Part shown: positions 14,225 through 34,202 of the stretch, one piece after another
Layout: the number at the start of each line of letters is the position of its first letter
How positions within the stretch are numbered: position 1 is the stretch's first letter
Virus record (IMG/VR): IMGVR_UViG_2531839481_000004
Location: 1 to 34,202 of that record
DNA length: 34,202 bases
From: a virus
Taxonomy: Duplodnaviria > Heunggongvirae > Uroviricota > Caudoviricetes
Strand: one strand, 5' to 3'
Translations under genes and position numbers: made by a program
The notes under the pieces: model-generated
What the model was told of the DNA's origin: nothing
The model's input: only the letters and a program-made list of their open reading frames with translations
Database searches by the model: none

Positions 14225-14875
14225 TCAGCGGCTGTCATTGCGCAGTCTGCGCTCCAGCTGCTGTTTGTCTTTTTTCACGCCACAGCGGGGATCGAGCTGT
14301 AACGCATGGTTGAGATGGTTAAGGGCGGACGCCGGATTGCTTTCACTCAGGACCGCGCCAATCGCTTTATGCAGACGCGCCCGTGACTGGTCCGGCATAT
14401 CCAGACCGTCTGTCAGCTCCAGCGTCTGCAGCAACAGATCGGCATCAAAGCCGGTGGCGGCAAGCATTGCGCTCTGCGCGGCGTCTGCCATTTCCTCTGC
14501 CAGCACGGTCTGCACGTTGCGGTTACCCAGCGGCATCACCCAGCCATGACGCAGGGCATGACGCCCGATCTCCAGCGCCCCGGCATAATCTCCGGCATCA
14601 ATGCGCCACAGCATCACGTACATCAGCACGTCATCCTGTTGAGCGCCTCCGGCAGCCAGGACACCCTCTGCCCAGGCGGCGTACTTCGGCAGCAGCTCCA
14701 CCTTGATTTCCGCTTTTTTGACCGTGGACTGAACGCCCTTGAGACGGCGGCGGTCTTCCGCCAGTTGCAGCAGCATCAGGTCATAGCCCGATGCGTGGCG
14801 AACACTGCCGCCCTCGCGGGCGGCCTGTTCAGCCTGAACGCGCAGGCGATGCTGCCGTGCGGGACTCAGGCTCAT
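14225..14875 (-). CDS. terminase small (endonuclease) subunit gpM
   Basis: 216 aa, synteny. Confidence 0.8.
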   Translation of the reverse strand: MSLSPARQHRLRVQAEQAAREGGSVRHASGYDLMLLQLAEDRRRLKGVQSTVKKAEIKVELLPKYAAWAEGVLAAGGAQQDDVLMYVMLWRIDAGDYAGALEIGRHALRHGWVMPLGNRNVQTVLAEEMADAAQSAMLAATGFDADLLLQTLELTDGLDMPDQSRARLHKAIGAVLSESNPASALNHLNHALQLDPRCGVKKDKQQLERRLRNDSR

Positions 14876-16929: not shown

Positions 16930-18696
16930 ATGAACACCACACTGACACCCGCAGATCTCGATCCCCGTCGGCAGGCCATGCTGCTGTACTTTCAGGGATA
17001 CCGCGTCGCCCGCATTGCTGAAATGCTGGGCGAGAAAGTTGCAACCGTTCATAGCTGGAAAAAACGCGACAAGTGGGGTGACTATGGGCCGCTGGATCAG
17101 ATGCAGCTCACCACCGCCGCACGCTACTGCCAGCTCATTATGAAGGAGCACAAAGAAGGGAAAGATTTCAAAGAGATTGACCTGCTGGCGCGCCAGTCGG
17201 AGCGCCACGCGCGCATCGGCAAGTTTAACAATGGCGGCAACGAAGCCGACTTAAACCCTAACGTCGCCAACCGCAACAAAGGCCCGCGCCGTCAGCCGGA
17301 AAAGAATGTTTTCACCGATGAACAGATTGAGAAGCTGGAAGAAATATTCCATTCCTCCATGTTCAACTACCAGCGCCACTGGTGGGAAGCCGGAAAAACC
17401 AATCGCATCCGCAACCTGCTGAAGTCTCGCCAGATCGGCGCGACCTTTTACTTTGCCCGTGAAGCCCTGATTGACGCCCTGCTGACCGGGCGTAACCAGA
17501 TTTTCCTTTCTGCCAGCAAGGCTCAGGCTCACGTCTTTAAACAGTACATCATCGACTTTGCCAAAGAAGTAGAGGTGGAGCTGAAAGGCGATCCGATGGT
17601 GCTTCCTAACGGGGCCACGCTTTACTTCCTCGGCACCAATGCCCGCACGGCCCAGAGTTACCACGGCAACCTGTATCTGGATGAATATTTCTGGATACCG
17701 AAATTCCAGGAGCTGCGCAAAGTGGCTTCCGGTATGGCTATTCACAAAAAATGGCGACAAACCTATTTTTCCACGCCATCCAGTCTGACACACAGTGCTT
17801 ATCCGTTCTGGTCCGGTGCGCTGTTCAACCGTGGGCGCAACAAAGCCGATAAGGTGGACATCGACCTGTCCCACAGCAATCTGGCCCCCGGCCTGCTGTG
17901 CGCAGACGGGCAATACCGCCAGATAGTCACCGTGGAAGATGCGGTGCGCGGCGGCTGTAACCTGTTCGACCTTGACCAGTTGCGCATGGAGTACAGCCCG
18001 GACGAATACCAGAACCTGCTGATGTGCGAGTTTGTGGACGATCTCGCGTCCGTGTTCCCGCTCAGCGAGCTGCAGGCGTGCATGGTAGACAGCTGGGAAA
18101 TCTGGACCGACTTTCATGCACTGGCGCTGCGCCCGTTTGGCTGGCGCGAAGTGTGGATCGGTTATGACCCGGCAAAAGGTACGCAGAACGGCGACAGTGC
18201 CGGATGCGTGGTGGTGGCACCGCCAGCCGTACCAGGTGGTAAGTTCCGCATTCTTGAGCGTCACCAGTGGCGCGGAATGGACTTCCGCGCCCAGGCTGAC
18301 GCCATCAAAAAACTGACCGAACAGTATAACGTGACCTACATCGGCATCGACTCAACCGGCGTTGGTCACGGGGTTTACGAGAACGTGAAAGCGTTTTTTC
18401 CTGCCGTCAGGGAGTTTGTCTACAACCCCAACGTTAAAAACGCCCTGGTACTCAAGGCCTACGACATTATCAGCCACCGCCGTCTGGAGTTTGACGCCGG
18501 ACACACCGACATAGCGCAGTCATTTATGGCAATCCGTCGCGCCACCACCGCCAGCGGCAACCGCCCGACCTATGAAGCCAACCGCAGCGAAGAAGCCAGC
18601 CATGCCGATCTGGCCTGGGCAACAATGCACGCACTGTTTAACGAACCGCTGCAGGGCGAGTCCGCCAATACCAGCAATATTGTGGAGATTTTTTGA
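16930..18696 (+). CDS. terminase large (ATPase) subunit gpP
   Basis: 588 aa, synteny, divergent from O. Confidence 0.9.
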   Translation: MNTTLTPADLDPRRQAMLLYFQGYRVARIAEMLGEKVATVHSWKKRDKWGDYGPLDQMQLTTAARYCQLIMKEHKEGKDFKEIDLLARQSERHARIGKFNNGGNEADLNPNVANRNKGPRRQPEKNVFTDEQIEKLEEIFHSSMFNYQRHWWEAGKTNRIRNLLKSRQIGATFYFAREALIDALLTGRNQIFLSASKAQAHVFKQYIIDFAKEVEVELKGDPMVLPNGATLYFLGTNARTAQSYHGNLYLDEYFWIPKFQELRKVASGMAIHKKWRQTYFSTPSSLTHSAYPFWSGALFNRGRNKADKVDIDLSHSNLAPGLLCADGQYRQIVTVEDAVRGGCNLFDLDQLRMEYSPDEYQNLLMCEFVDDLASVFPLSELQACMVDSWEIWTDFHALALRPFGWREVWIGYDPAKGTQNGDSAGCVVVAPPAVPGGKFRILERHQWRGMDFRAQADAIKKLTEQYNVTYIGIDSTGVGHGVYENVKAFFPAVREFVYNPNVKNALVLKAYDIISHRRLEFDAGHTDIAQSFMAIRRATTASGNRPTYEANRSEEASHADLAWATMHALFNEPLQGESANTSNIVEIF

Positions 18697-19724
18697 TGGA
18701 AAAGAGTAAGAAGAACCGCGCTGCGTCGACGAAACAGATCCAGCATAAAAACCAAACTTCAGCCGAAGCATTCAGCTTCGGCGATCCCGTTCCTGTTCTG
18801 GACCGTCGCGAACTGCTGGACTATGTGGAATGCGTACAGATGGATCGCTGGTATGAGCCGCCTGTGAGTTTCGACGGCCTGGCGCGAACCTTCCGCGCCG
18901 CCGTACACCACAGCTCACCGATTGCAGTAAAGTGCAACATTCTGACCAGCACCTATATCCCTCACCCGCTGCTCAGCCAGCAGGCTTTTTCACGTTTTGT
19001 GCAGGACTATCTGGTATTTGGTAACGCCTACCTGGAGAAACGCACGAACCGCTTCGGTGAAGTTATCGCCCTTGAACCTGCGCTGGCAAAATACACCCGA
19101 CGCGGATTAGACCTGGATACCTACTGGTTTGTGCAATACGGCATGACCACGCAGCCGTATCAGTTCACGAAAGGCAGCATTTTTCATCTGATGGAACCGG
19201 ACATCAACCAGGAGATCTACGGCCTGCCAGGCTATCTTTCTGCCATTCCATCCGCCCTGCTCAACGAGTCTGCCACGCTGTTCCGCCGTAAGTATTACAT
19301 CAACGGCAGCCATGCAGGCTTCATCATGTACATGACCGACGCCGCGCAGAATCAGGAGGATGTGAACAATCTCCGCAACGCGATGAAAAGCGCCAAAGGT
19401 CCAGGCAACTTCCGCAACCTGTTTATGTACTCGCCTAACGGCAAAAAGGACGGCCTTCAGATCATCCCTTTGTCAGAAGTTGCGGCGAAGGATGAGTTTC
19501 TGAATATCAAAAATGTCAGCCGCGATGACATGATGGCAGCACATCGCGTTCCGCCACAGATGATGGGGCTTATGCCAAGTAATGTTGGGGGATTTGGGGA
19601 TGTGGAAAAAGCGAGTTTAGTGTTTGTTCGCAATGAGTTAATCCCCCTTCAAAAAAGATTTGAGGAGCTGAATGAATGGATAGAAGAAACAGTAATTAAG
19701 TTTAATGAATATAAATTAAATTGA
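18696..19724 (+). CDS. portal protein gpQ
   Basis: ~343 aa; ATG overlaps the P stop (tgATGg). Confidence 0.9.
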   Translation: MEKSKKNRAASTKQIQHKNQTSAEAFSFGDPVPVLDRRELLDYVECVQMDRWYEPPVSFDGLARTFRAAVHHSSPIAVKCNILTSTYIPHPLLSQQAFSRFVQDYLVFGNAYLEKRTNRFGEVIALEPALAKYTRRGLDLDTYWFVQYGMTTQPYQFTKGSIFHLMEPDINQEIYGLPGYLSAIPSALLNESATLFRRKYYINGSHAGFIMYMTDAAQNQEDVNNLRNAMKSAKGPGNFRNLFMYSPNGKKDGLQIIPLSEVAAKDEFLNIKNVSRDDMMAAHRVPPQMMGLMPSNVGGFGDVEKASLVFVRNELIPLQKRFEELNEWIEETVIKFNEYKLN

Positions 19725-19770: not shown

Positions 19771-21435
19771 CTATAAATTGAATTTATGCATTCTTAACTC
19801 ATTCAATTTACTCTCTCTAGAAATCTTCATTAAAGCAGCCTTAGCTTTTATAGAAACAGATCTCGTTTTCTCATTTACATTACCAATACGACTAAATTTC
19901 AGACAAGTAGCAACGTGGGATGTTAAATGATTCCCATGCAAACTTTTAAAATAATGATAATAATCATCTTCAGTAGCGCTACTTAATACTTCTATATCAT
20001 CATCATTCCAGCCATTTTTTCCACTGAGCGCATCCAACACCTCACCTAAAGTGCGCTTGGGTGAATCAGTTAGATACACACCTTTAAATTTCTCAATGAT
20101 TTCTGCATCTTTGATTGGTCTAAAAAGATAAAAATTATCCAGATCAAATAACTCTATTTCACTTCGTCTTTCTTGAATATAATACGTAATCATCTCAGAT
20201 GCCTTTGTATCTTCTCCTAGTTCACGGAAGACCCCAACAAGGCTATCAAGATCATTAGGAGATACTTGAGTTACACAATCCATAAAGCACTTATAAAAAT
20301 GAGAAACAACTTCTTCTACATTATCATCAAAACTATTATGAAATAAATCCCATGCACTTCTAAATGAGTTTGACTTTTTATTTTCTAAAGCCTGTTTATT
20401 TATAATTTTTATTGCCTCATTAAACTCTGTCATATCTATATAACCATTCCTGACTAGCTTTGCTATTTTCCTATCCAGCTCATCAACCCTTGTAAAATTA
20501 TAGCTCAGTAAAATATCCTTCCATTTTTTTTCTTCTTCTGTTACATCCTTTTTGCCTATTGAGTAAATACTTTCCATAGATTCGAGGAAATCCAAAGAGG
20601 GAACATCCTTATCTGATTTAGAGCAATAATAGGCCCAATTCATTAATACAACCGTATGCAAAAATTGCATTTTAACTTCACTTTCGCACTCTTCAAAAGC
20701 TCGCCATGCATTTTCTACGTTTCGCTCTATTTTCTTTAAAACTCTAATATTTTTGATGCCTAACGAAATAGTATATTGTGCTAACGGCTTATGAAAATCC
20801 TTACTATTATCATATGCTATCTGTGCAGATTCACTGGGCGTAGGTGAAAAATGCAACTCAATGTCAATTACTTTTTCTTTAAACTTTTCATAATCAGCAA
20901 CTTCTTTAGTACCATCATTGAGTAAAAGTATAACCTTACATTTCTTTTGTTCTTTTAACAAAGAAATAAGACCTAATACATCTTTAAGTTCTAATGACGA
21001 TCCTTTACGCTCTAAATCATCTATGCAAATTAATGAATCTGACACAGACATAAATGACCATGCTTCTATTGCAGGAGCGGCAGACTTTATATACGGCAGC
21101 TCTTTCAATTTACTCCACGAACCTCGCCCCAATATTTCAAGCATACCTAATGTATTTTTTCTTAAACTATCTAGACTTGGCTCATGTCCTATGGAGTCTT
21201 TTGAAACTGCATTTTCAAAAATGGAATATTTTAATCTATCTAACGAAGATATACCGAAAAGAGAGACATAGGAATAATGCGAAGCAGAAATCATATTTTG
21301 ACACTTTGCTTCCAGAAGAAACTTATTCCAACTAAATGTCTTACCAACTCCCCACTCTCCTTTAATTGCCATAACCGAAGGGGCTGATTTAGAAACAAAG
21401 TTTAGAATTTGTTCTCGTACCAAGCTTAGCGACAT
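19771..21435 (-). CDS. KAP-type P-loop NTPase (554 aa), accessory cargo gene
   Basis: Walker A GEWGVGKT (aa 26-33, nt ~21337-21360), Walker B-like LICIDDLER, no obvious TM helices, AT-rich, ATG with AAGGAG SD. Confidence 0.7.
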   Translation of the reverse strand: MSLSLVREQILNFVSKSAPSVMAIKGEWGVGKTFSWNKFLLEAKCQNMISASHYSYVSLFGISSLDRLKYSIFENAVSKDSIGHEPSLDSLRKNTLGMLEILGRGSWSKLKELPYIKSAAPAIEAWSFMSVSDSLICIDDLERKGSSLELKDVLGLISLLKEQKKCKVILLLNDGTKEVADYEKFKEKVIDIELHFSPTPSESAQIAYDNSKDFHKPLAQYTISLGIKNIRVLKKIERNVENAWRAFEECESEVKMQFLHTVVLMNWAYYCSKSDKDVPSLDFLESMESIYSIGKKDVTEEEKKWKDILLSYNFTRVDELDRKIAKLVRNGYIDMTEFNEAIKIINKQALENKKSNSFRSAWDLFHNSFDDNVEEVVSHFYKCFMDCVTQVSPNDLDSLVGVFRELGEDTKASEMITYYIQERRSEIELFDLDNFYLFRPIKDAEIIEKFKGVYLTDSPKRTLGEVLDALSGKNGWNDDDIEVLSSATEDDYYHYFKSLHGNHLTSHVATCLKFSRIGNVNEKTRSVSIKAKAALMKISRESKLNELRMHKFNL

Positions 21436-21528
21436 AACTCACTCCTTGATTGCGAATGTTAATTATATATTTTACCAAAAATCTTAATCACCACCTATAG
21501 AAAGGTGAAAGATGGGTGCTGGCGCGCG

Positions 21529-21547
21529 CTCGTATCCCCGCCACGCC
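21529..21547 (-). other. candidate cos cohesive-end sequence
   Basis: minus strand GGCGTGGCGGGGATACGAG followed by CGCGCGC; first 13 nt identical to the remembered 186 cohesive end, orientation relative to Q as in P2. Confidence 0.45.
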
Positions 21548-21569
21548 TGCCCGCTTTATGTAGTGGTTT

Positions 21570-21672
21570 TCATGCACCTGCATGTTCTACGTAAAAGCCC
21601 GCTAGTTCTGGCGAGCCTTAGCAAAAACGATCCTTAAACGATCATGCGATTTCATGCAGCATAGTCATGCAC
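21570..21672. repeat. cluster of four TCATGC(A) motifs including the palindrome CATGCACCTGCATG
   Basis: copies at ~21570, 21642, 21652 and 21665; palindrome at 21571-21584. Confidence 0.3.
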
Positions 21673-21869
21673 TGTCTAAGAGAAGTGAAAGTCCGTATCT
21701 GAATGACCACTTGAGAAACGAAACATACAGACTTACAAAGATGAAGCTCTACTGTGAGCGAGGAACATACATAGTTGCTCTGTAATAGCCAAATTTTAAG
21801 CAGGAAATCTCTTTTTTATGACAAAACTATAAAGAAAAACAGACCGTTTCATCGCTCGATGAAAATATA

Positions 21870-23447
21870 CTACAATACTTTTCTCTCGATGGTATTTTTA
21901 ATGGTCAACATATCTTTAGGAATACTTTTTTTCCCCTCTATACGTATGGTAAACACAAAAAGAATAACGGCTGATCTCACAATTTTCATGAGTTGTAAGA
22001 GCTGTTTCTCAAACTTTTCTTTCTCAATAAACCTCACCTCATCAAAAAATCCATAAGAATTATATAAATCAACTAACATGTCTTTCTCGTGAATAACTAA
22101 CAGTTTATGTTCTAAATCATTCCTCCATTCTTTAAAAAAAGCAAGCTCACCATTTTTATCATTCAAATCCATAGCAATACTAAACAAACCCAGCAATCCT
22201 TTATTATTTATTTTGTTTATTTTAAGCTTTCTTTTTTCATCACTAATCCGCCAGAAGTTATGAAAGTATATATGTCCTCTATCTGGTTTTAAATCAAATA
22301 ATTGACACAGAGCAACTGCTATTTTATCCAAGATACCAAAGCAAGCTCTAAATGCAACCCTTAACTTCTCAACATTTTCATACAATATTTCTCCATTATA
22401 CAATTCAGAATAACATACCTCCGAATCCTCATCAAAAAACTCACTATCAACCTTATATTCAAAAAACATTTTTCGTGCTAAGGAATACTCAGCTTTAAGT
22501 CTATTTAACACCATTTCCATTGGCACTATAAAATCACCAAACACACCTTCCTCGGTGGTCGCAATAGTTATATTATCTTTAGATGACGCATAACAATTGC
22601 AATATAGCGAATGATCAGACAACATTAGATTATTATCTATACAAAACCTCTGGTAGTTTGATAAAGTATCATACTCCTCCTGCGTGAGCCTTTCATCTGT
22701 ACTTATATCCTCTATGCCATATACACATGATTCACTCAATATACTTTCGTTGTACTTTATTTTTCTTTGAAGAGCAACCTTCCATGAAGGAAAACATTTC
22801 CCTGACTTTATTGCACACTCATAACCTCGAATAACTTCTTTAATCATTTTATATGTATATGTTGTAGATAATTCATTAAGCAATTCTAATGCCTCAGATC
22901 TGTTTACCCACGCCTGAGGAATTGAGTTATCAATAGATATTGCTTGTTCATAATAATCCATTGATTCAGACATACGATATTGTTTTTTTAATACATTAGC
23001 TAGATTAACTATTAAATCAGGGGGCACCCATCCATCTTCTTGTGAAAGTTTAAACGCTTTCCAGTAATTATTTTTTACATCATTCAGCTTAATGAAACTA
23101 TCAATATCTGCATTGTCATTAGGATTAAAATCAAGAACTGCGCTCATTCCATTTGCCAAGTTATAGTAATATAAGGATTCTTTCATTATAGTCAGAAATT
23201 CATTTTTATTGTTTATAAAGATATTTAAGCCTTCCTCCGCTATATTTTTTACATTACTAAAATTTCCGATATCAATAAGATTTCCGGCCAAATTAGATAA
23301 TATAATTATTCTATTTTCTTTGATTGTATTTATCTCATCGATACCGTTAAGAATATCCTTTACATTTTTATAGGCAGAATCAAATGAACCTGCATTAATA
23401 AGATCATCTACGACCCCCATTTTTGAAACAACATAGTTGATATCCAT
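21870..23447 (-). CDS. 525-aa protein with helical-repeat N-terminal region and C-terminal HEPN-like domain (Rx4H motif WRNDLEHK), accessory cargo gene
   Basis: ATG with AGAGGA SD; strongly AT-rich; R442-x4-H447 motif (nt ~22107-22124); occupies the tin/old position between cos and A. Confidence 0.65.
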   Translation of the reverse strand: MDINYVVSKMGVVDDLINAGSFDSAYKNVKDILNGIDEINTIKENRIIILSNLAGNLIDIGNFSNVKNIAEEGLNIFINNKNEFLTIMKESLYYYNLANGMSAVLDFNPNDNADIDSFIKLNDVKNNYWKAFKLSQEDGWVPPDLIVNLANVLKKQYRMSESMDYYEQAISIDNSIPQAWVNRSEALELLNELSTTYTYKMIKEVIRGYECAIKSGKCFPSWKVALQRKIKYNESILSESCVYGIEDISTDERLTQEEYDTLSNYQRFCIDNNLMLSDHSLYCNCYASSKDNITIATTEEGVFGDFIVPMEMVLNRLKAEYSLARKMFFEYKVDSEFFDEDSEVCYSELYNGEILYENVEKLRVAFRACFGILDKIAVALCQLFDLKPDRGHIYFHNFWRISDEKRKLKINKINNKGLLGLFSIAMDLNDKNGELAFFKEWRNDLEHKLLVIHEKDMLVDLYNSYGFFDEVRFIEKEKFEKQLLQLMKIVRSAVILFVFTIRIEGKKSIPKDMLTIKNTIERKVL

Positions 23448-23734: not shown

Positions 23735-23968
23735 TTAATGCAGCCAGCTGTCGTCTTCCCACACCTTCTGCATAATTTTCATCACTTGCTTCCTTTCTTC
23801 GTCCAGTTGCAGTCCGGTTAGTTCCACACCGTTAGAGCTACCTTTGCGAATGCGAATTACCGTTTTGGGATACAGGGGGCGCAGATTGCGGTAAAGCTCG
23901 GATTCAAGGGCGTCCAGGGTAGACTGGCTAATCTTCTGCTCTTTATCGATCATTATTTCAATGCGCAT
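23735..23968 (-). CDS. DinI-like protein (77 aa)
   Basis: MRIEIMIDK...LDALESEL...QKVWEDDSW resembles E. coli DinI; ATG with GAGGTGA SD. Confidence 0.75.
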   Translation of the reverse strand: MRIEIMIDKEQKISQSTLDALESELYRNLRPLYPKTVIRIRKGSSNGVELTGLQLDEERKQVMKIMQKVWEDDSWLH

Positions 23969-23978
23969 AAAAGTCACC

Positions 23979-24167
23979 TCAGCTGATGACATCCATTGAG
24001 CGGTTGTATTCGTGGGTTCTGATTTTTGCCATGAGTTCATCTGTTAGTTCAGAAACCCACTGCAAAGCCAGCCCCTTCTCTTCATCACTACACTCACTAG
24101 CCGCTACAAGCTTAAGAAAAAAATCAATGCGCTGGAGCTTCAAAGACTCCAAAAAATAGTCCTGCAT
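23979..24167 (-). CDS. small protein (62 aa) under a LexA box, tum-like SOS module
   Basis: ATG with AGGAGG SD 5 nt upstream; LexA box 44-59 bp upstream. Confidence 0.5.
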   Translation of the reverse strand: MQDYFLESLKLQRIDFFLKLVAASECSDEEKGLALQWVSELTDELMAKIRTHEYNRSMDVIS

Positions 24168-24320: not shown

Positions 24321-26735
24321 TTAATACAGGTTTCGCCACTTATCATCTTCCTGCAAACGCTGGTTCCGATAGAAGATACGCAGGCCTGCTCCTGACGGAA
24401 TACTGCCGCCGCGAAGGAGTAAATCGACCTCTTTCTCGCTGCCATTAAATCCTCTGGACTTCAGTTCATAGACGAGCTGCTGTCGCTGATGGTCTGTAAT
24501 TCGCTGTTTGTAGTCTTTACGCCGTTTCGGTTTCACCAGGCGTAACCTTGCAGCCAGTTCCCTGCGCTCTTTTTTGCTCATACTGTGCAGGTAATCGTGC
24601 AACTCCTTGTCATCCATGCGGATAATGTCCGTTCTGGTGTCCCCATCAGCTGATTTATCTTTCTCCTGTTGGTTCAAATTTTCAGCAAGGGGACAGTTAT
24701 TGCCACGAGTCCAAGGGGCGCAAGCGCCCTGGTCGGCTGCCGCCTCCTGAACGTCAACGGCCTTACGAACCATTTTCCACTTCACGGCATGAGTGCAGAT
24801 TTTGCCCTCTGCAATGGGTGACCAGATGCCATAAATACGAATGCCGTGATCGCCATAGGCGGTCGGCTCTTCGTTGATTTCATAAGCGGTTCTGATGAGG
24901 TGATATTTACGGGGAACCAGTACGCCGCCCTGCTTCATGATGTAGGTGGCAAAACAACCAGCATCAGCTGCAGCCAGAATGGCATCAAGGCGCGGGTTAT
25001 CCAGTACCGGCGCACCTGCTTTTTTGTCACCCTGTTGCCTTGCCGCCTGACCAGCCAGCAATCGCAGTTCACGGTAAGCCTGACGCCCCGGAATGCCAAA
25101 GAAGCGGAATTGCTGAACACGATGCAGAGACGCCCAGGCATTAACGTATTCAGCGTTATCACGCAGAGATTTACCCGTTTCCTTGCTGATCTCGCCAGCC
25201 AGACCACGCCCGTCAATGTTCTTACTGATGTATTTCGCGATGTAGCTAGTCGGCGTTCCTTTGCGCGGGTTTATCAGCTCAGACTTAAAGCGTGGCCCCG
25301 TGTTATTACCCAGCTCCTCGCGGTCTTCACGGATAGCAAACTTACGCAACAATGCAGTAATGGCGCGGCGGTCTTTTTTGCGCATGAAACACAACAGGTG
25401 CCAGTGAACTGTGCCGTCATGATGCGGCTCAGCCACCCGCACGCCATACCAGCGCAACCCGGCTTTGTGCATCGCCTTACGAAATGCAGCAAACATGCCG
25501 ACCAGATAATCACTGCTTTGTCTTACCGTCGCATTTGTCCAGGTCGGGTTGGGCCTACCGTTATTTAGCGTGGAATGGAAACGTGACGGACAGGTGATGG
25601 TGTAGAAAACGGCGCAGTCACCGCGCATTTCCGCGATAAGCTCCAGACCTTTAACACAGGCCATCATCTCATTGCGGCGATGCGCAGGGTTGCTGCTGCT
25701 GGCGTTTACCACATCCTCCATGTCCAGCGTGTCGCCGTCTTCGTTCACCAGTTCATGAGAACGGAAAAACTCCAGCGACTTACGGCGCTGCTCACGTTTA
25801 TGCATCACGGCTTCATAGCTGACATAGGGAGATGCTTTTTTGCTGACCAGGCAAACAGCACGCAACTGCTCTTCCCGCCATTCGCAACGCATCTTCCACA
25901 ATTTCCGATACCACCAGTCGGCGCACAGCATACGCGCCAGCGACCCCGGAATGAGTTCATAGGGCACGGGTTTACGGCGGTTTCTTTTCCGGCGGAGTTG
26001 CTCAAACGCAGGCGGTATGACATCCAGTCGCAGGGTTTCCGCCGCCACCTTTTCCCATGTCTTGCGGATTTCTTCTGGCTTAACGTCATCGGTGGCATAC
26101 AAATCGCCACAAGCGGCATCAAGGCACATGCTCATATGCGCAGCTACCAGGGTGGACAGGCGTTTCACCTGATCCTGACTCATTTCAGGCAGGATCAGCA
26201 GACCGTCCAGCCCTTCATGGCTTGCCATAAAGCGAAAAGAAGTGGATAGCTGACTGTCGCGTACATGCTCCAGTCGTTCCAGACATGGCTTAATCGTCTC
26301 ACGCAAATAGCGGGAATAAGCCTTTGGCCTGCCCAGGCTGCTGAAGTATTCAATACGTTGCATCAGCGGCTTGCTGATATGGGAAGGCTGGGCGTTAACG
26401 TCCGCCAGAATGACCATGCCCGGATTAAAACGCTGCTGCTCATGCGCCAGCTTTGCCCGGCTAATGAGCTTATCCTGCTCCATTTCGCGCTGGACAGGAT
26501 CACGTGATTCATTAAAGAAATAACGCTCCCATACCTGATCACTCAGAGCCTCGCGGCGCAGTTGTTCCTGCTCGTTATCGGTAGCGTACAGAGTGATCAG
26601 GTTTGAAAGCGCAGAAACCGGCGCAACTTCCGCCGGGTCCAGATAAGGGTTAATGGCCTTTTTCGGGCTGTTCCATGAGAATGCTGCGGCGACCTCGTTA
26701 AAGCCGCTGCAGTTGTTCATATCAGCATGGCTCAT
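24321..26735 (-). CDS. replication initiation protein A (rolling-circle nickase, P2 gpA family)
   Basis: [13 protein letters not shown] and [13 protein letters not shown] motifs shared with P2 A. Confidence 0.9.
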
Positions 26736-27589
26736 GCACGCACTCCGTACACGGCAGAACTATCCACGCCACGCGAAGGATCAAATCCCACCCAGCAGCG
26801 CGGCCCGGAAACAGCGATGATTTCTGTTGCAGATTTACTCTCACCAGCTGCTACACCGATGCTGCGTTTTGCCTTGATGTAGTGGTGAGTAAAATTGCGA
26901 TACAGCGAACGGATCAGGGATGTATCACTGTTAGAAACAATGACCGGATGTCCTTCTGATGACCGATGTTCAAGAACGGATGCCAGGTGATACTGGTCAT
27001 CTTCAGTGAAACCATCAGTGTGATAGCCGGAAAACGTACCGTCATACGGCGGATCGCAATACACCACATCCCCCACCTGCAGCATCGCCAGCGTTTCATC
27101 AAAGCTTGCGCAGATAAACGTTGCTCGCTGGGCTTTTTCTGCAAATGTGCGAAGTTCTTTTTCAGGGAAATACGGATTTTTATAATTACCGTAGGGAATG
27201 TTGAAATGCCCGCTCTTGTTATAGCGACATAAACCACGGTAACCGTGACGATTGAGATACAGGAAATATACCGCTTTCATGAAATCAGTAATTTCAGTGG
27301 AGTAATTAAACTCCTGCCTTATGTTGTAATAAGCCACCTCCCTGTTTGCGATCTCAAATAAAACTCTGGCGCGAGATATAAACGATTCACAATCAGCGGC
27401 AACCTTTTTATAGAGGTTGATTAAATCAGGATTAATATCCGCAACCAGATAGCTGGGGTAATCCGTCTCCATCATCACAGCACAAGAACCCGCGAAAGGT
27501 TCAACCAGTCGCGGGCCTGCAGGAAGGTGTTTTTTCAGTTCGGACATAATGGCGGTTTTATTACCCGCCCATTTCAGGATGGTGCTCAT
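26732..27589 (-). CDS. DNA adenine methyltransferase (Dam-like, N6-A MTase)
   Basis: [12 protein letters not shown]-terminus, FAGSCAV SAM-binding motif, DPPY catalytic motif; ATG at 27587-27589 with GGAGGTG SD. Confidence 0.85.
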
Positions 27590-27888
27590 ACAGCACCTCC
27601 TGCAATAACATATCCTAAAGCTTCTAATGGGGTTAATGAGCGAATTGATAGCATCACCCATTGTTCTGAAACTGCCATGACGTCATTAACCGGAAGCACA
27701 TGAGAGATAACCGCGGCCCATTCCCTACCCGTAAATACGCCATGCTTCCATTCGCAAAGAGAAAGAACATCACCAACTTTATAGCCACGATCGTCTTTAC
27801 GAAGTTCAGCCGTCTTTTGACCTGCAACCACAGCGTTGAAATACTTAGGTGCAATTTTTAATTGATGGATACGCACAGCCCCTGTCAT
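27586..27888 (-). CDS. ASCH-domain-like small protein
   Basis: 100 aa; pattern resembling ASCH/PUA-like domains; ATG with GGAGGTG SD. Confidence 0.5.
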
Positions 27889-30081: not shown

Positions 30082-30714
30082 ATGTTAAACATCAGAATGG
30101 GTTCCGATACGGGAGGTAAGGCAGCTATTGAGAGGCTGCTTGAGGCTTATGGATTCACAACTAAGCAGGCATTAAGCGAGCACCTGAATGTCTCAAAAAG
30201 TACTATGGCAAACAGAGTGTTACGTGACAGTTTTCCTGCTGACTGGATAATTCAGTGTGCACTAGAAACCGGTGTTTCGTTACTTTGGTTAGCCACTGGA
30301 CAGGGAAGCATGAAAGAAGGATACGAGCCTGAGAAAAGATCTCATAACGAGAACAAACAAGCAATTAAACCGTTATCCAAACTCATAACTCCATCTATTC
30401 CTAAAGGAACCTTGGAAAATGGACAACTCAGTATTGATGAAGAGATTTTCCTAGACCACAGCATATTACCTGCAGATTATGAAGAATCGATGTTCTTAGA
30501 AACCCCTACTGATTGTTATCTCATCGATAAATCAGTTAAACAAGTCAGCAATGGATTCTGGCTTATCAATATTGATGGAATGATTATTATTGCAAAAATC
30601 ATGCGGATTCCCGGCAATAAGATTGTAGTAAATCAAGATGAAGCGTCTTTCGAGTGCTCTGCTGATGATGTGGAAGTTATTGGGCGTGCAGTCAAAGTAA
30701 TAAAGAGTATCTAA
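30082..30714 (+). CDS. cI: 186-type CI immunity repressor
   Basis: 210 aa, N-terminal HTH, followed directly by int; GGAGA SD. Confidence 0.8.
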   Translation: MLNIRMGSDTGGKAAIERLLEAYGFTTKQALSEHLNVSKSTMANRVLRDSFPADWIIQCALETGVSLLWLATGQGSMKEGYEPEKRSHNENKQAIKPLSKLITPSIPKGTLENGQLSIDEEIFLDHSILPADYEESMFLETPTDCYLIDKSVKQVSNGFWLINIDGMIIIAKIMRIPGNKIVVNQDEASFECSADDVEVIGRAVKVIKSI

Positions 30715-30716
30715 AC

Positions 30717-31733
30717 ATGACTGTCAGAAAACAGCCAAACGGTAAATGGTTGTGCGAGTGCTATCCCAATGGACGCAATGGCAAGCGCGTGCGTAAGCAA
30801 TTTGCTACGAAAGGCGAAGCCATTGCTTTTGAAAGCTTCACAATGGAAGAAGTGAACAAAAAACCATGGCTGGGGGAAAAGGAAGATCGGCGACACCTAT
30901 CAGAATTAATTGAGCAGTGGTATTCCCTGTATGGTCAAACACTCGCAGACCCCAAGCGCCTCATAGCGAAACTTAGAATTATCTGTAATGGTCTAGGCGA
31001 TCCCATCGCTTCAGAACTGACAGCCGGTGACTTTACGAAATACCGCGAAGCACGGTTAAAAGGTGAAGTACGAAATGAAGATGGCACGTTTATGTCGCCC
31101 GTTAAGCCCCGCACGGTAAACCTTGAACAGCGCAATCTATCATCTGTTTTTGGTACACTGAAAAAGCTGGGCCACTGGTCAGCCCCCAACCCGCTTGCTG
31201 GGCTGCCAACATTTAAAATTGCTGAGAGTGAATTGGCGTTCCTGACCCCGGAAGAAATTAAACGTCTGCTGGATGCCTGCGCCGATTCTCAAAGCTCCAG
31301 CCTGCTTTTGATTGCAAAAATATGCCTGGCCACCGGCGCACGCTGGAGCGAAGCCGAAAACCTGCAGAGTCATCAGGTATCAAAATACCGTATCACTTAT
31401 ACCAAGACCAAAGGCAAGAAAAACCGAACTGTGCCTATTTCTAAGGATTTATATGAAGAACTGCCTAAGAATAGGGGGAAGTTATTCACCCCATGCAGAA
31501 AAGCCTTTGAGCGTGCAGTAAAGCGGGCTGGTATCGATCTGCCAGAGGGTCAATGTACTCACGTTCTGCGTCATACATTCGCTAGCCATTTTATGATGAA
31601 TGGTGGAAACATATTGGTTTTGCGGGATATCCTAGGACATTCAGATATAAAAATGACCATGGTCTATGCACACTTCGCCCCAGACCATTTAGAAGATGCC
31701 GTAACTAAAAATCCTTTATTTAATTTGAGGTAA
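30717..31733 (+). CDS. int: tyrosine integrase
   Basis: 338 aa, C-terminal HVLRHTFASHF...LGHSDIKMTMVYAH catalytic region (R..HxxR..Y). Confidence 0.9.
   Translation: MTVRKQPNGKWLCECYPNGRNGKRVRKQFATKGEAIAFESFTMEEVNKKPWLGEKEDRRHLSELIEQWYSLYGQTLADPKRLIAKLRIICNGLGDPIASELTAGDFTKYREARLKGEVRNEDGTFMSPVKPRTVNLEQRNLSSVFGTLKKLGHWSAPNPLAGLPTFKIAESELAFLTPEEIKRLLDACADSQSSSLLLIAKICLATGARWSEAENLQSHQVSKYRITYTKTKGKKNRTVPISKDLYEELPKNRGKLFTPCRKAFERAVKRAGIDLPEGQCTHVLRHTFASHFMMNGGNILVLRDILGHSDIKMTMVYAHFAPDHLEDAVTKNPLFNLR

Positions 31734-33125: not shown

Positions 33126-34202
<1,077 letters not shown>

Follow-up and report, generated by a model that had tools for sequence, protein, structure and literature searches.

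The window, by which we mean the whole stretch of 34,202 nucleotides analysed here (IMG/VR record IMGVR_UViG_2531839481_000004), is on sequence evidence part of a Fels-2-type P2-like prophage. Pfam searches identified a gpM-type small terminase subunit at 14225–14875 on the minus strand (PF05944, Phage_term_smal, E = 2.2e-40) and a gpP-type large terminase at 16930–18696 on the plus strand (Terminase_6N, 3e-65; Terminase_6C, 2.5e-49; Terminase_5, 3e-27), the latter with an ATPase, an RNaseH-like nuclease and the helix-turn-helix-like Terminase_5 domain at its N-terminus. The gene for the portal protein gpQ is located at 18693–19724 on the plus strand, and further to the right Pfam matches were obtained for DinI (23735–24040, minus strand), the replication protein gpA (24321–26735, minus strand) and a D12 Dam-like methylase (26732–27661, minus strand) as well as for a CI-type repressor and an integrase (30082–31733, plus strand). 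The structural genes are 96–97% identical to those of Klebsiella phage 4LV2017 and related E. coli and Klebsiella phages and prophages, and this homology ends at the end of Q. In P2-like phages the cos site lies between Q and A, within a hotspot for defence genes (Rousset et al. 2022, PMC9122126), and the candidate cos site of the window is found at the same place, between the portal gene Q and the replication gene A with its left end toward Q.

Two genes of about 30% GC, both on the minus strand, border this site. The first one, between Q and cos, encodes a KAP-family P-loop NTPase of 554 amino acids (19771–21435; PF07693; PADLOC candidate PDC-S49, E = 1e-29) and is probably anti-phage cargo of the P2 cos-proximal hotspot. 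The second one encodes an LA2681-like HEPN protein of 525 amino acids (21870–23447; C-terminal HEPN_LA2681, E = 1.7e-38, and a weak TPR match) and fills a second cargo slot between cos and DinI/gpA, where close relatives carry nothing or other genes. The whole conserved cos block, at 21522–21673 and read on the minus strand, is an island between these two variable slots. In a comparison of 21300–21900 with 50,697 phage records, matches were confined to 21522–21673 (83–89 records, 80–95% identity), almost the same range as the 21529–21672 given in an earlier sequence-only reading of this DNA, and the cargo around this same block differs among close relatives. Its GC content is about 46%, compared to about 30% in both flanks and about 53% in the backbone. 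A known structured RNA was ruled out, as Rfam gave no match at E ≤ 1 within 21300–21950, and a promoter reading was rejected as no sigma-70-like site was found at 21350–21950.

The plus strand at 21522–21547 reads gcgcgcgctcgtatccccgccacgcc. On the minus strand, positions 21547 to 21529 are GGCGTGGCGGGGATACGAG, followed by CGCGCGC at 21528 to 21522, exactly as given in the earlier reading, which had proposed a packaging site here oriented toward Q. This orientation was confirmed, with the GGCG end pointing toward Q as for cosL in P2. We assign 21529–21547 (minus strand) as cosN with a predicted 19-nt 5' cohesive end, based on its identity to phage SEN8 and on the alignment with P2 and 186. The SEN8 record KT630647.2 begins with the same 19-mer plus CGCGCGC (19/19), annotated there as 'putative cos site', and its end shows the same upstream repeats as the window. 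The SEN8 genome announcement gives the cos site as ggcgtggcggggatacgag, assigned by annotation and not by end mapping (PMC5427200), and the one-base variant GGCGTGGCGGGGAGACGAG has been assigned by analogy in Stenotrophomonas phage Smp131 (PMC3931495). In the literature we found no experimental end mapping for the cos sites of SEN8, Fels-2 or 4LV2017-type prophages. The cohesive ends of P2, 186 and P4 were determined experimentally, unlike the annotation-based variant of the window. P2 begins with GGCGAGGCGGGGAAAGCAC and 186 with GGCGTGGCGGGGAAAGCAT, both continuing with TGCGCGC, so the ends that the earlier reading had given for P2 and 186 were correct. Compared to P2 the 19-mer of the window matches at 14/19 positions, with mismatches at positions 5, 14, 16, 17 and 19. 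The 13-mer GGCGWGGCGGGGA has one exact occurrence in the whole window, ruling out a second cos there.

In order to compare the sites base by base, circular junctions of P2, P4 and 186 were built from the ends of their records and a gapless alignment was anchored on the first base of the cohesive end. This base is rel 0 and corresponds to window position 21547, and rel x corresponds to window position 21547 − x. The window aligned with P2 and 186, the comparison suggested by the earlier reading, and also with P4 base for base and without gaps. Common to P2, P4, 186, SEN8, Fels-2 and the window are AAAACC...AAG(C/T)GGGC(A/G), the 19 nt and YGCGCGC, in this order, and all of them show GCAT cores at rel −122/−123, −110, −100 and −28. 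With P2, 186 and P4 the window shares a GC-rich 19-nt 5' cohesive end starting with GGCG(A/T)GGCGGGG, the YGCGCGC flank, a left end facing the portal gene and the upstream AAAACC...AAGCGGGC, which together with a preceding TGCAT make up a conserved core of about 55 bp (TGCAT-AAAACC...AAGCGGGC, 19 nt, YGCGCGC). The right-end flank of the nick at 21548–21570 (minus strand), AAAACC(ACTA)CATAAAGCGGGCA, is part of this '55-bp core' and aligned with P2, P4 and 186. According to later papers citing them, Ziermann and Calendar (1990) described the '55-bp core', about rel −29 to +25 on our scale, and they reportedly showed the P2/P4 cos to be sufficient for packaging in plasmid transduction by a helper.

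The window differs from P2, 186 and P4 in the 3' third of the cohesive end, which is ATACGAG instead of AAAGCAC/T, in the flavour of the repeats, which are GCATGA and GTGCATGAAAACCAC instead of mostly TGCAT(T/G) and CTGCATTAAAACCG, and in a pair of GATC sites, which is a Fels-2-type feature. A packaging specificity of its own is the probable reason for these differences. To SEN8, Fels-2 (Felsduovirus) and Klebsiella 4LV2017-type prophages the similarity is much closer, with GGCGTGGCGGGGATACGAG and CGCGCGC being identical, the block of about 150 bp being 91–95% identical and the same repeats, hairpin, GATC pair and position between gpQ and DinI/gpA being present, whereas the cargo on both sides is different and the central hairpin is weaker in the window. 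As the cohesive end has been published in identical form and dozens of phage records contain near-identical blocks, the site has to be regarded as the already known P2-family cos, which is ordinary, was correctly recognised and will not surprise a P2 specialist.

To the right of the 19-mer the earlier reading had noted four TCATGC motifs and a palindrome, and all of them are present, the TCATGC copies on the plus strand at 21570, 21642, 21652 and 21665 and the palindrome CATGCA-CC-TGCATG at 21571–21584. Over the whole window TCATGC is not enriched (25 sites, 30.9 expected). Four same-strand copies within 101 bp were reached in 0/400 first-order Markov simulations, the maximum being three copies in 6/400, and chance clustering was thereby ruled out. 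Read on the minus strand, the elements form two groups. The proximal inverted repeat CATGCA-GG-TGCATG (21571–21584) has its GCAT core at rel −28 and an ATGC at rel −36, with the palindrome CATGCAnnTGCATG and the following AAAACC covering rel −37 to −18. The distal array (21642–21671) consists of three direct repeats (T/C)GCATGA, namely R1 at 21642–21647, R2 at 21652–21658 and R3 at 21665–21671, with GCAT cores at rel −100, −110 and −123.

To take a broader look at the conservation of these elements we scanned IMG/VR with GCGGGCNGGCGNGGCGGGG, which gave at least 120 loci, 122 distinct cos regions and 92 representatives below 85% identity. The sample is biased, and since the search pattern covered rel −7 to +11 the conservation seen there is circular, while all other positions were free to vary. 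Among the matches listed, GCAT was present at rel −123 in 82/122 regions (53/92 representatives), at rel −110 in 97/122 (68/92), at rel −100 in 102/122 (72/92) and at rel −28 in 118/122 (88/92), and ATGC at rel −36 in 85/122 regions. For the 92 representatives among the matches listed this means 58–96% at the four GCAT positions against a background of 0.63 per position (0.7%). High information content was found at the three distal repeats, at gcCAGnnCTGGc (centred at rel −59.5), ATGCAnnTGCATgAAAAcC and CATaAAGCGGGCA, at the cohesive end and at TGCGCGC, and also over the block from rel −37 to −1, including rel −23 to −1 (21548–21570), of which −7 to −1 were fixed by the search pattern. It was much lower between the elements and dropped to noise before rel −125 and after +25. 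Apart from the cohesive end and its Q-side flank, all conserved information is located on the gpA side of the nick. Across about 125 bp no indels were observed even though the spacers showed only 38% identity (92 representatives among the matches listed), and it follows that the spacing to the nick is constrained. The window agrees with the consensus of these representatives among the matches listed at the high-information positions from rel −37 to +25, with class-specific departures at rel −17 to −14 and over the final third of the cohesive end. Its cohesive end and flank are the commonest variant among the matches listed (at least 32/122), and this variant includes the 3' portion that had been described as diverged. 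The earlier reading had also named conservation in related prophages as a point on which it could fail; besides the block matches in phage records, the repeats sit at fixed positions in about 120 cos regions among the matches listed.

The left edge of the conserved block is formed by the YGCGCGC flank past the cohesive end (21522–21528, minus strand, Q side). BLAST matches to other phages stop at 21522, the mean pairwise identity at rel +19 to +25 is 90% (92 representatives among the matches listed) and conservation ends at +26. The predicted nicks, placed by analogy, would be located at 21548/21547 on the minus strand and at 21528/21529 on the plus strand. Immediately beyond each predicted nick, 7 bp (21548–21554 and 21522–21528) show pseudo-symmetry, as GCGGGCA on one side is similar to the (T/C)GCGCGC of the other side when the latter is reverse-complemented. 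For the consensus TGCGCGC the reverse complement is GCGCGCA, which matches GCGGGCA at 6/7 positions and in the window at 5/7. We therefore read the YGCGCGC flank as a putative mirrored half-site for the second nick, and a terminase dimer that nicks symmetrically would be in line with the pseudo-symmetry. Pseudo-symmetric half-sites would also explain why the conservation reaches exactly 7 bp past the cohesive end.

Thirteen of the loci among the matches listed are P4-like satellites, which carry homologues of P4 psu, sid, delta and alpha and no gpQ, gpP, gpA or gpM. Among these, GCAT was found at rel −123 in 12/13 and at rel −110, −100 and −28 in 13/13 each. The satellites L017, L050 and L098 have Fels-2-type cohesive ends, GGCGTGGCGGGGCTACGAG followed by CGCGCGC (...CTACGAG and CGCGCGC), and they also show the Fels-2-type flavour of the repeats, with CGCATGA at R1 and GTGCATGAAAACC or GTGCATGAAAAcC proximally, while satellites with P2/186-type ends have TTGCATG and CTGCATTAAAA. 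P4-like satellites rely on the terminase of their helper, and only cos is common to satellite and helper. Of the comparative evidence available, the co-variation of repeat flavour and cohesive end argues best for the repeats being part of the packaging signal and having a helper-specific reader, and it also suggests that L017, L050 and L098 are satellites specialised on Felsduovirus-type helpers.

Between the proximal and the distal repeats lies an inverted repeat centred at rel −59.5 (21594–21619, minus strand; family position rel −72 to −47), which is terminator-like and partly degraded in the window. As RNA it folds with −14.6 kcal/mol (z = −2.25) and is followed by four U only, compared to −22 kcal/mol (z = −4.85) for the copy in Fels-2, relative to which the window carries two stem-weakening substitutions. 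A simple terminator scan did not call the hairpin at 21594–21619. Among the representatives listed, Watson–Crick pairing around rel −59.5 was 0.55, against 0.23–0.27 in shifted controls, and the outer pairs showed some covariation. A TTTT tail follows the inverted repeat in 28/92 representatives among the matches listed, making about 30% of them terminator-like, and P2 has no central inverted repeat. The element may keep transcription of the early operon or the cargo from running across cos; alternatively, it may be a palindrome to which a protein binds.

Adjoining R1, two GATC (Dam) sites form a pair with a distance of 11 bp (21629–21643), the individual sites being located at 21629–21632 (rel −85) and 21640–21643 (rel −96). 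Among the matches listed, Fels-2-type regions have GATC at rel −96 in 47/57 and at rel −85 in 46/57 cases, and both sites occur together in 45/57 Fels-2-type but only in 3/61 P2/186-type regions, while the spacer between them varies. As Fels-2-type phages are one clade, the association of the GATC pair with a phage dam gene is confounded by phylogeny and also by incomplete loci. In phage P1, a headful packager, pac contains seven TGATCA/G elements and its cleavage is controlled by Dam methylation. The window resembles P1 pac in having GATC sites beside the short repeats of a packaging site and in encoding its own D12 Dam-like methylase, but it has two such sites only and methylation dependence is pure speculation here. 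With two conserved Dam sites abutting R1 and a phage-encoded methylase, a methylation-sensitive recognition of cos is possible, and methylation-sensitive packaging as at P1 pac is at least conceivable.

Taken together, we read 21522–21673 as the putative cos of a Fels-2-type P2-like prophage, consisting of the nicking site and a cosB-like array by which the gpM/gpP terminase would recognise it, and we give this reading a probability of roughly 0.85. Position, orientation, sequence and family-wide conservation as well as the identity of the 19-mer to the published cos of SEN8 all support the packaging site that had been proposed. In our model the large (gpP) and small (gpM) terminase subunits would recognise the block of about 150 bp on replicated phage DNA; the P2 family is said, following Pruss and Calendar in 1978, to package from circular monomers. 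The terminase would assemble on the one-sided array made of the proximal palindrome and the distal triplet, with the DNA possibly being bent at the central palindrome, and the TGCAT elements would act as a cosB-like array that keeps the nuclease at a constant distance to the nick. Two staggered nicks at the predicted positions, flanked by the half-sites GCGGGCA and CGCGCGC, would then generate 19-nt 5' overhangs reading GGCGTGGCGGGGATACGAG, and the end beside the portal gene Q would be the 'left' end as defined in P2. The comparison demonstrates the identity of the sequence, its location, conservation at constant spacing across the family and an array common to satellites; cleavage at 21522–21673, the subunit that would bind the repeats, the end that would enter the capsid first and the direction of packaging are what we infer from it. 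As a reader of the repeats gpM is the conventional candidate, with gpP being a further one due to its N-terminal Terminase_5 domain. Solved structures for homologues of gpM or gpP were not found by sequence.

The comparison with the cos of phage lambda (cosQ-cosN-cosB) is an analogy of function and not a matter of membership. Lambda cos contains R sites and an IHF site, and its array is read by the small terminase subunit, which is presumed to do the same here. Both sites combine a nicking site of partial two-fold symmetry with short repeats arrayed nearby over about 100 bp, and in the window several short repeats keep a constant distance to the nick, their conservation being independent of the flanking sequence. 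The two show no sequence similarity, the overhang is 12 nt in lambda and 19 nt here, and in the window every recognition element is located on one side of the nick, the right-end side of the genome. The term 'cosB-like' is used for an array on the gpA (right-end) side and describes its function, not its position.

Among the alternatives, an architectural role of the repeats and the central palindrome has to be considered, in which a host nucleoid protein would bind to them or the DNA would be intrinsically bent, with the sequence-specific contacts of the terminase limited to the 55-bp core. In lambda cosB it is IHF that shapes cos for the terminase. A looped or bent complex would be expected to show the fixed, indel-free spacing between distal and proximal elements seen across the family, and the literature, in the part accessible for it, treats the 55-bp core alone as the conserved cos. 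Against this, the flavour of the repeats differs between P2/186-type and Fels-2-type elements in the same enterobacterial hosts and co-varies with the type of the cohesive end, the satellites included, which is easier to reconcile with a phage-specific reader than with a host factor shared by both, and an IHF consensus was not obvious in the spacer when read by eye. We consider a purely architectural role unlikely. Similarly improbable is that the site is a cos by descent and now an unused relic of a defective prophage. The two stem-weakening changes in the hairpin relative to Fels-2 would fit such a decay, and the window, covering only part of the prophage, leaves room for it, but all conserved core positions are intact and equal the family consensus, full-length ORFs are found for terminase, portal, capsid, replication, repressor and integrase, and the structural genes are nearly identical, at the level given above, to those of Klebsiella and E. 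coli phages that were isolated or induced.

That the cos assignment is right but the TGCAT repeats serve transcription, as promoter, operator or terminator for the cargo or early operon or as regulator sites, is the least probable of these explanations: the −35 region of the P2 old/tin promoter (NC_001895, 33424–33470), deduced from transcript starts annotated at 33424/33426, overlaps R3 and the two groups of repeats are separated by a terminator-like hairpin, but the adjacent cargo varies in content and orientation while the repeats stay put, the promoter search found no sigma-70-like site at 21350–21950, the constant distance runs to the nick and not to any gene, and the P4-like satellites with their unrelated regulation have the same array at the same distances in the flavour of the helper. 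The overlap in P2 implies that promoters of cargo genes can make use of the border of the cos block. The sequence-only reading had left open whether the repeats are terminase or regulator sites; terminase sites appear to be the best-supported interpretation, as the repeats are fixed in about 120 listed cos regions and kept by satellites, whereas regulator sites received no support.

More tentatively, and we would rather doubt it than assume it at present, the packaging signal of the P2 family might be larger than the 55-bp core, namely a one-sided module of about 150 bp in which the flavour of the repeats would define packaging-specificity classes, copied by P4-like satellites from their helpers, and in which recognition may be Dam-sensitive in Fels-2-type phages. 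This module may contain the proximal palindrome, the central inverted repeat and the distal TGCAT triplet at an invariant 100–123 bp from the nick. In the literature searched, which had Ziermann & Calendar 1990 outside its scope, no mention was found of the distal triplet, its invariant spacing, the flavour copied by satellites or the GATC pair, nor of TGCAT repeats together with cos and terminase; Ziermann & Calendar 1990 may already describe part or all of the extended module. Sequences outside the core may well contribute, as one experiment hints: a cosmid in which the flanks of cos were longer reached a transduction of 0.035, about 2000-fold above the 1.7e-5 of the poorest construct (PMC9594776).

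Annotation of the site fixes the genome ends of the prophage, and it provides an invariant anchor between two slots for defence-gene cargo in the 'hotspot' described for P2 by Rousset et al. 2022. The comparison also results in a precise and testable map of the constrained bases in P2-family cos regions, which should be useful for the design of P2/P4 cosmids and transducing particles and for predicting which satellites and helpers form packaging pairs.

Two short ORFs run over the cos block on the plus strand, at 21512–21637 and 21654–21785, with 41 and 43 amino acids, respectively. A coding reading was rejected for both, given the motif-wise conservation, the variable spacers and the cos core contained in the block, and both are probably spurious, having been called where a cis-acting site is located. 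In some relatives they are annotated as 'hypothetical protein'.
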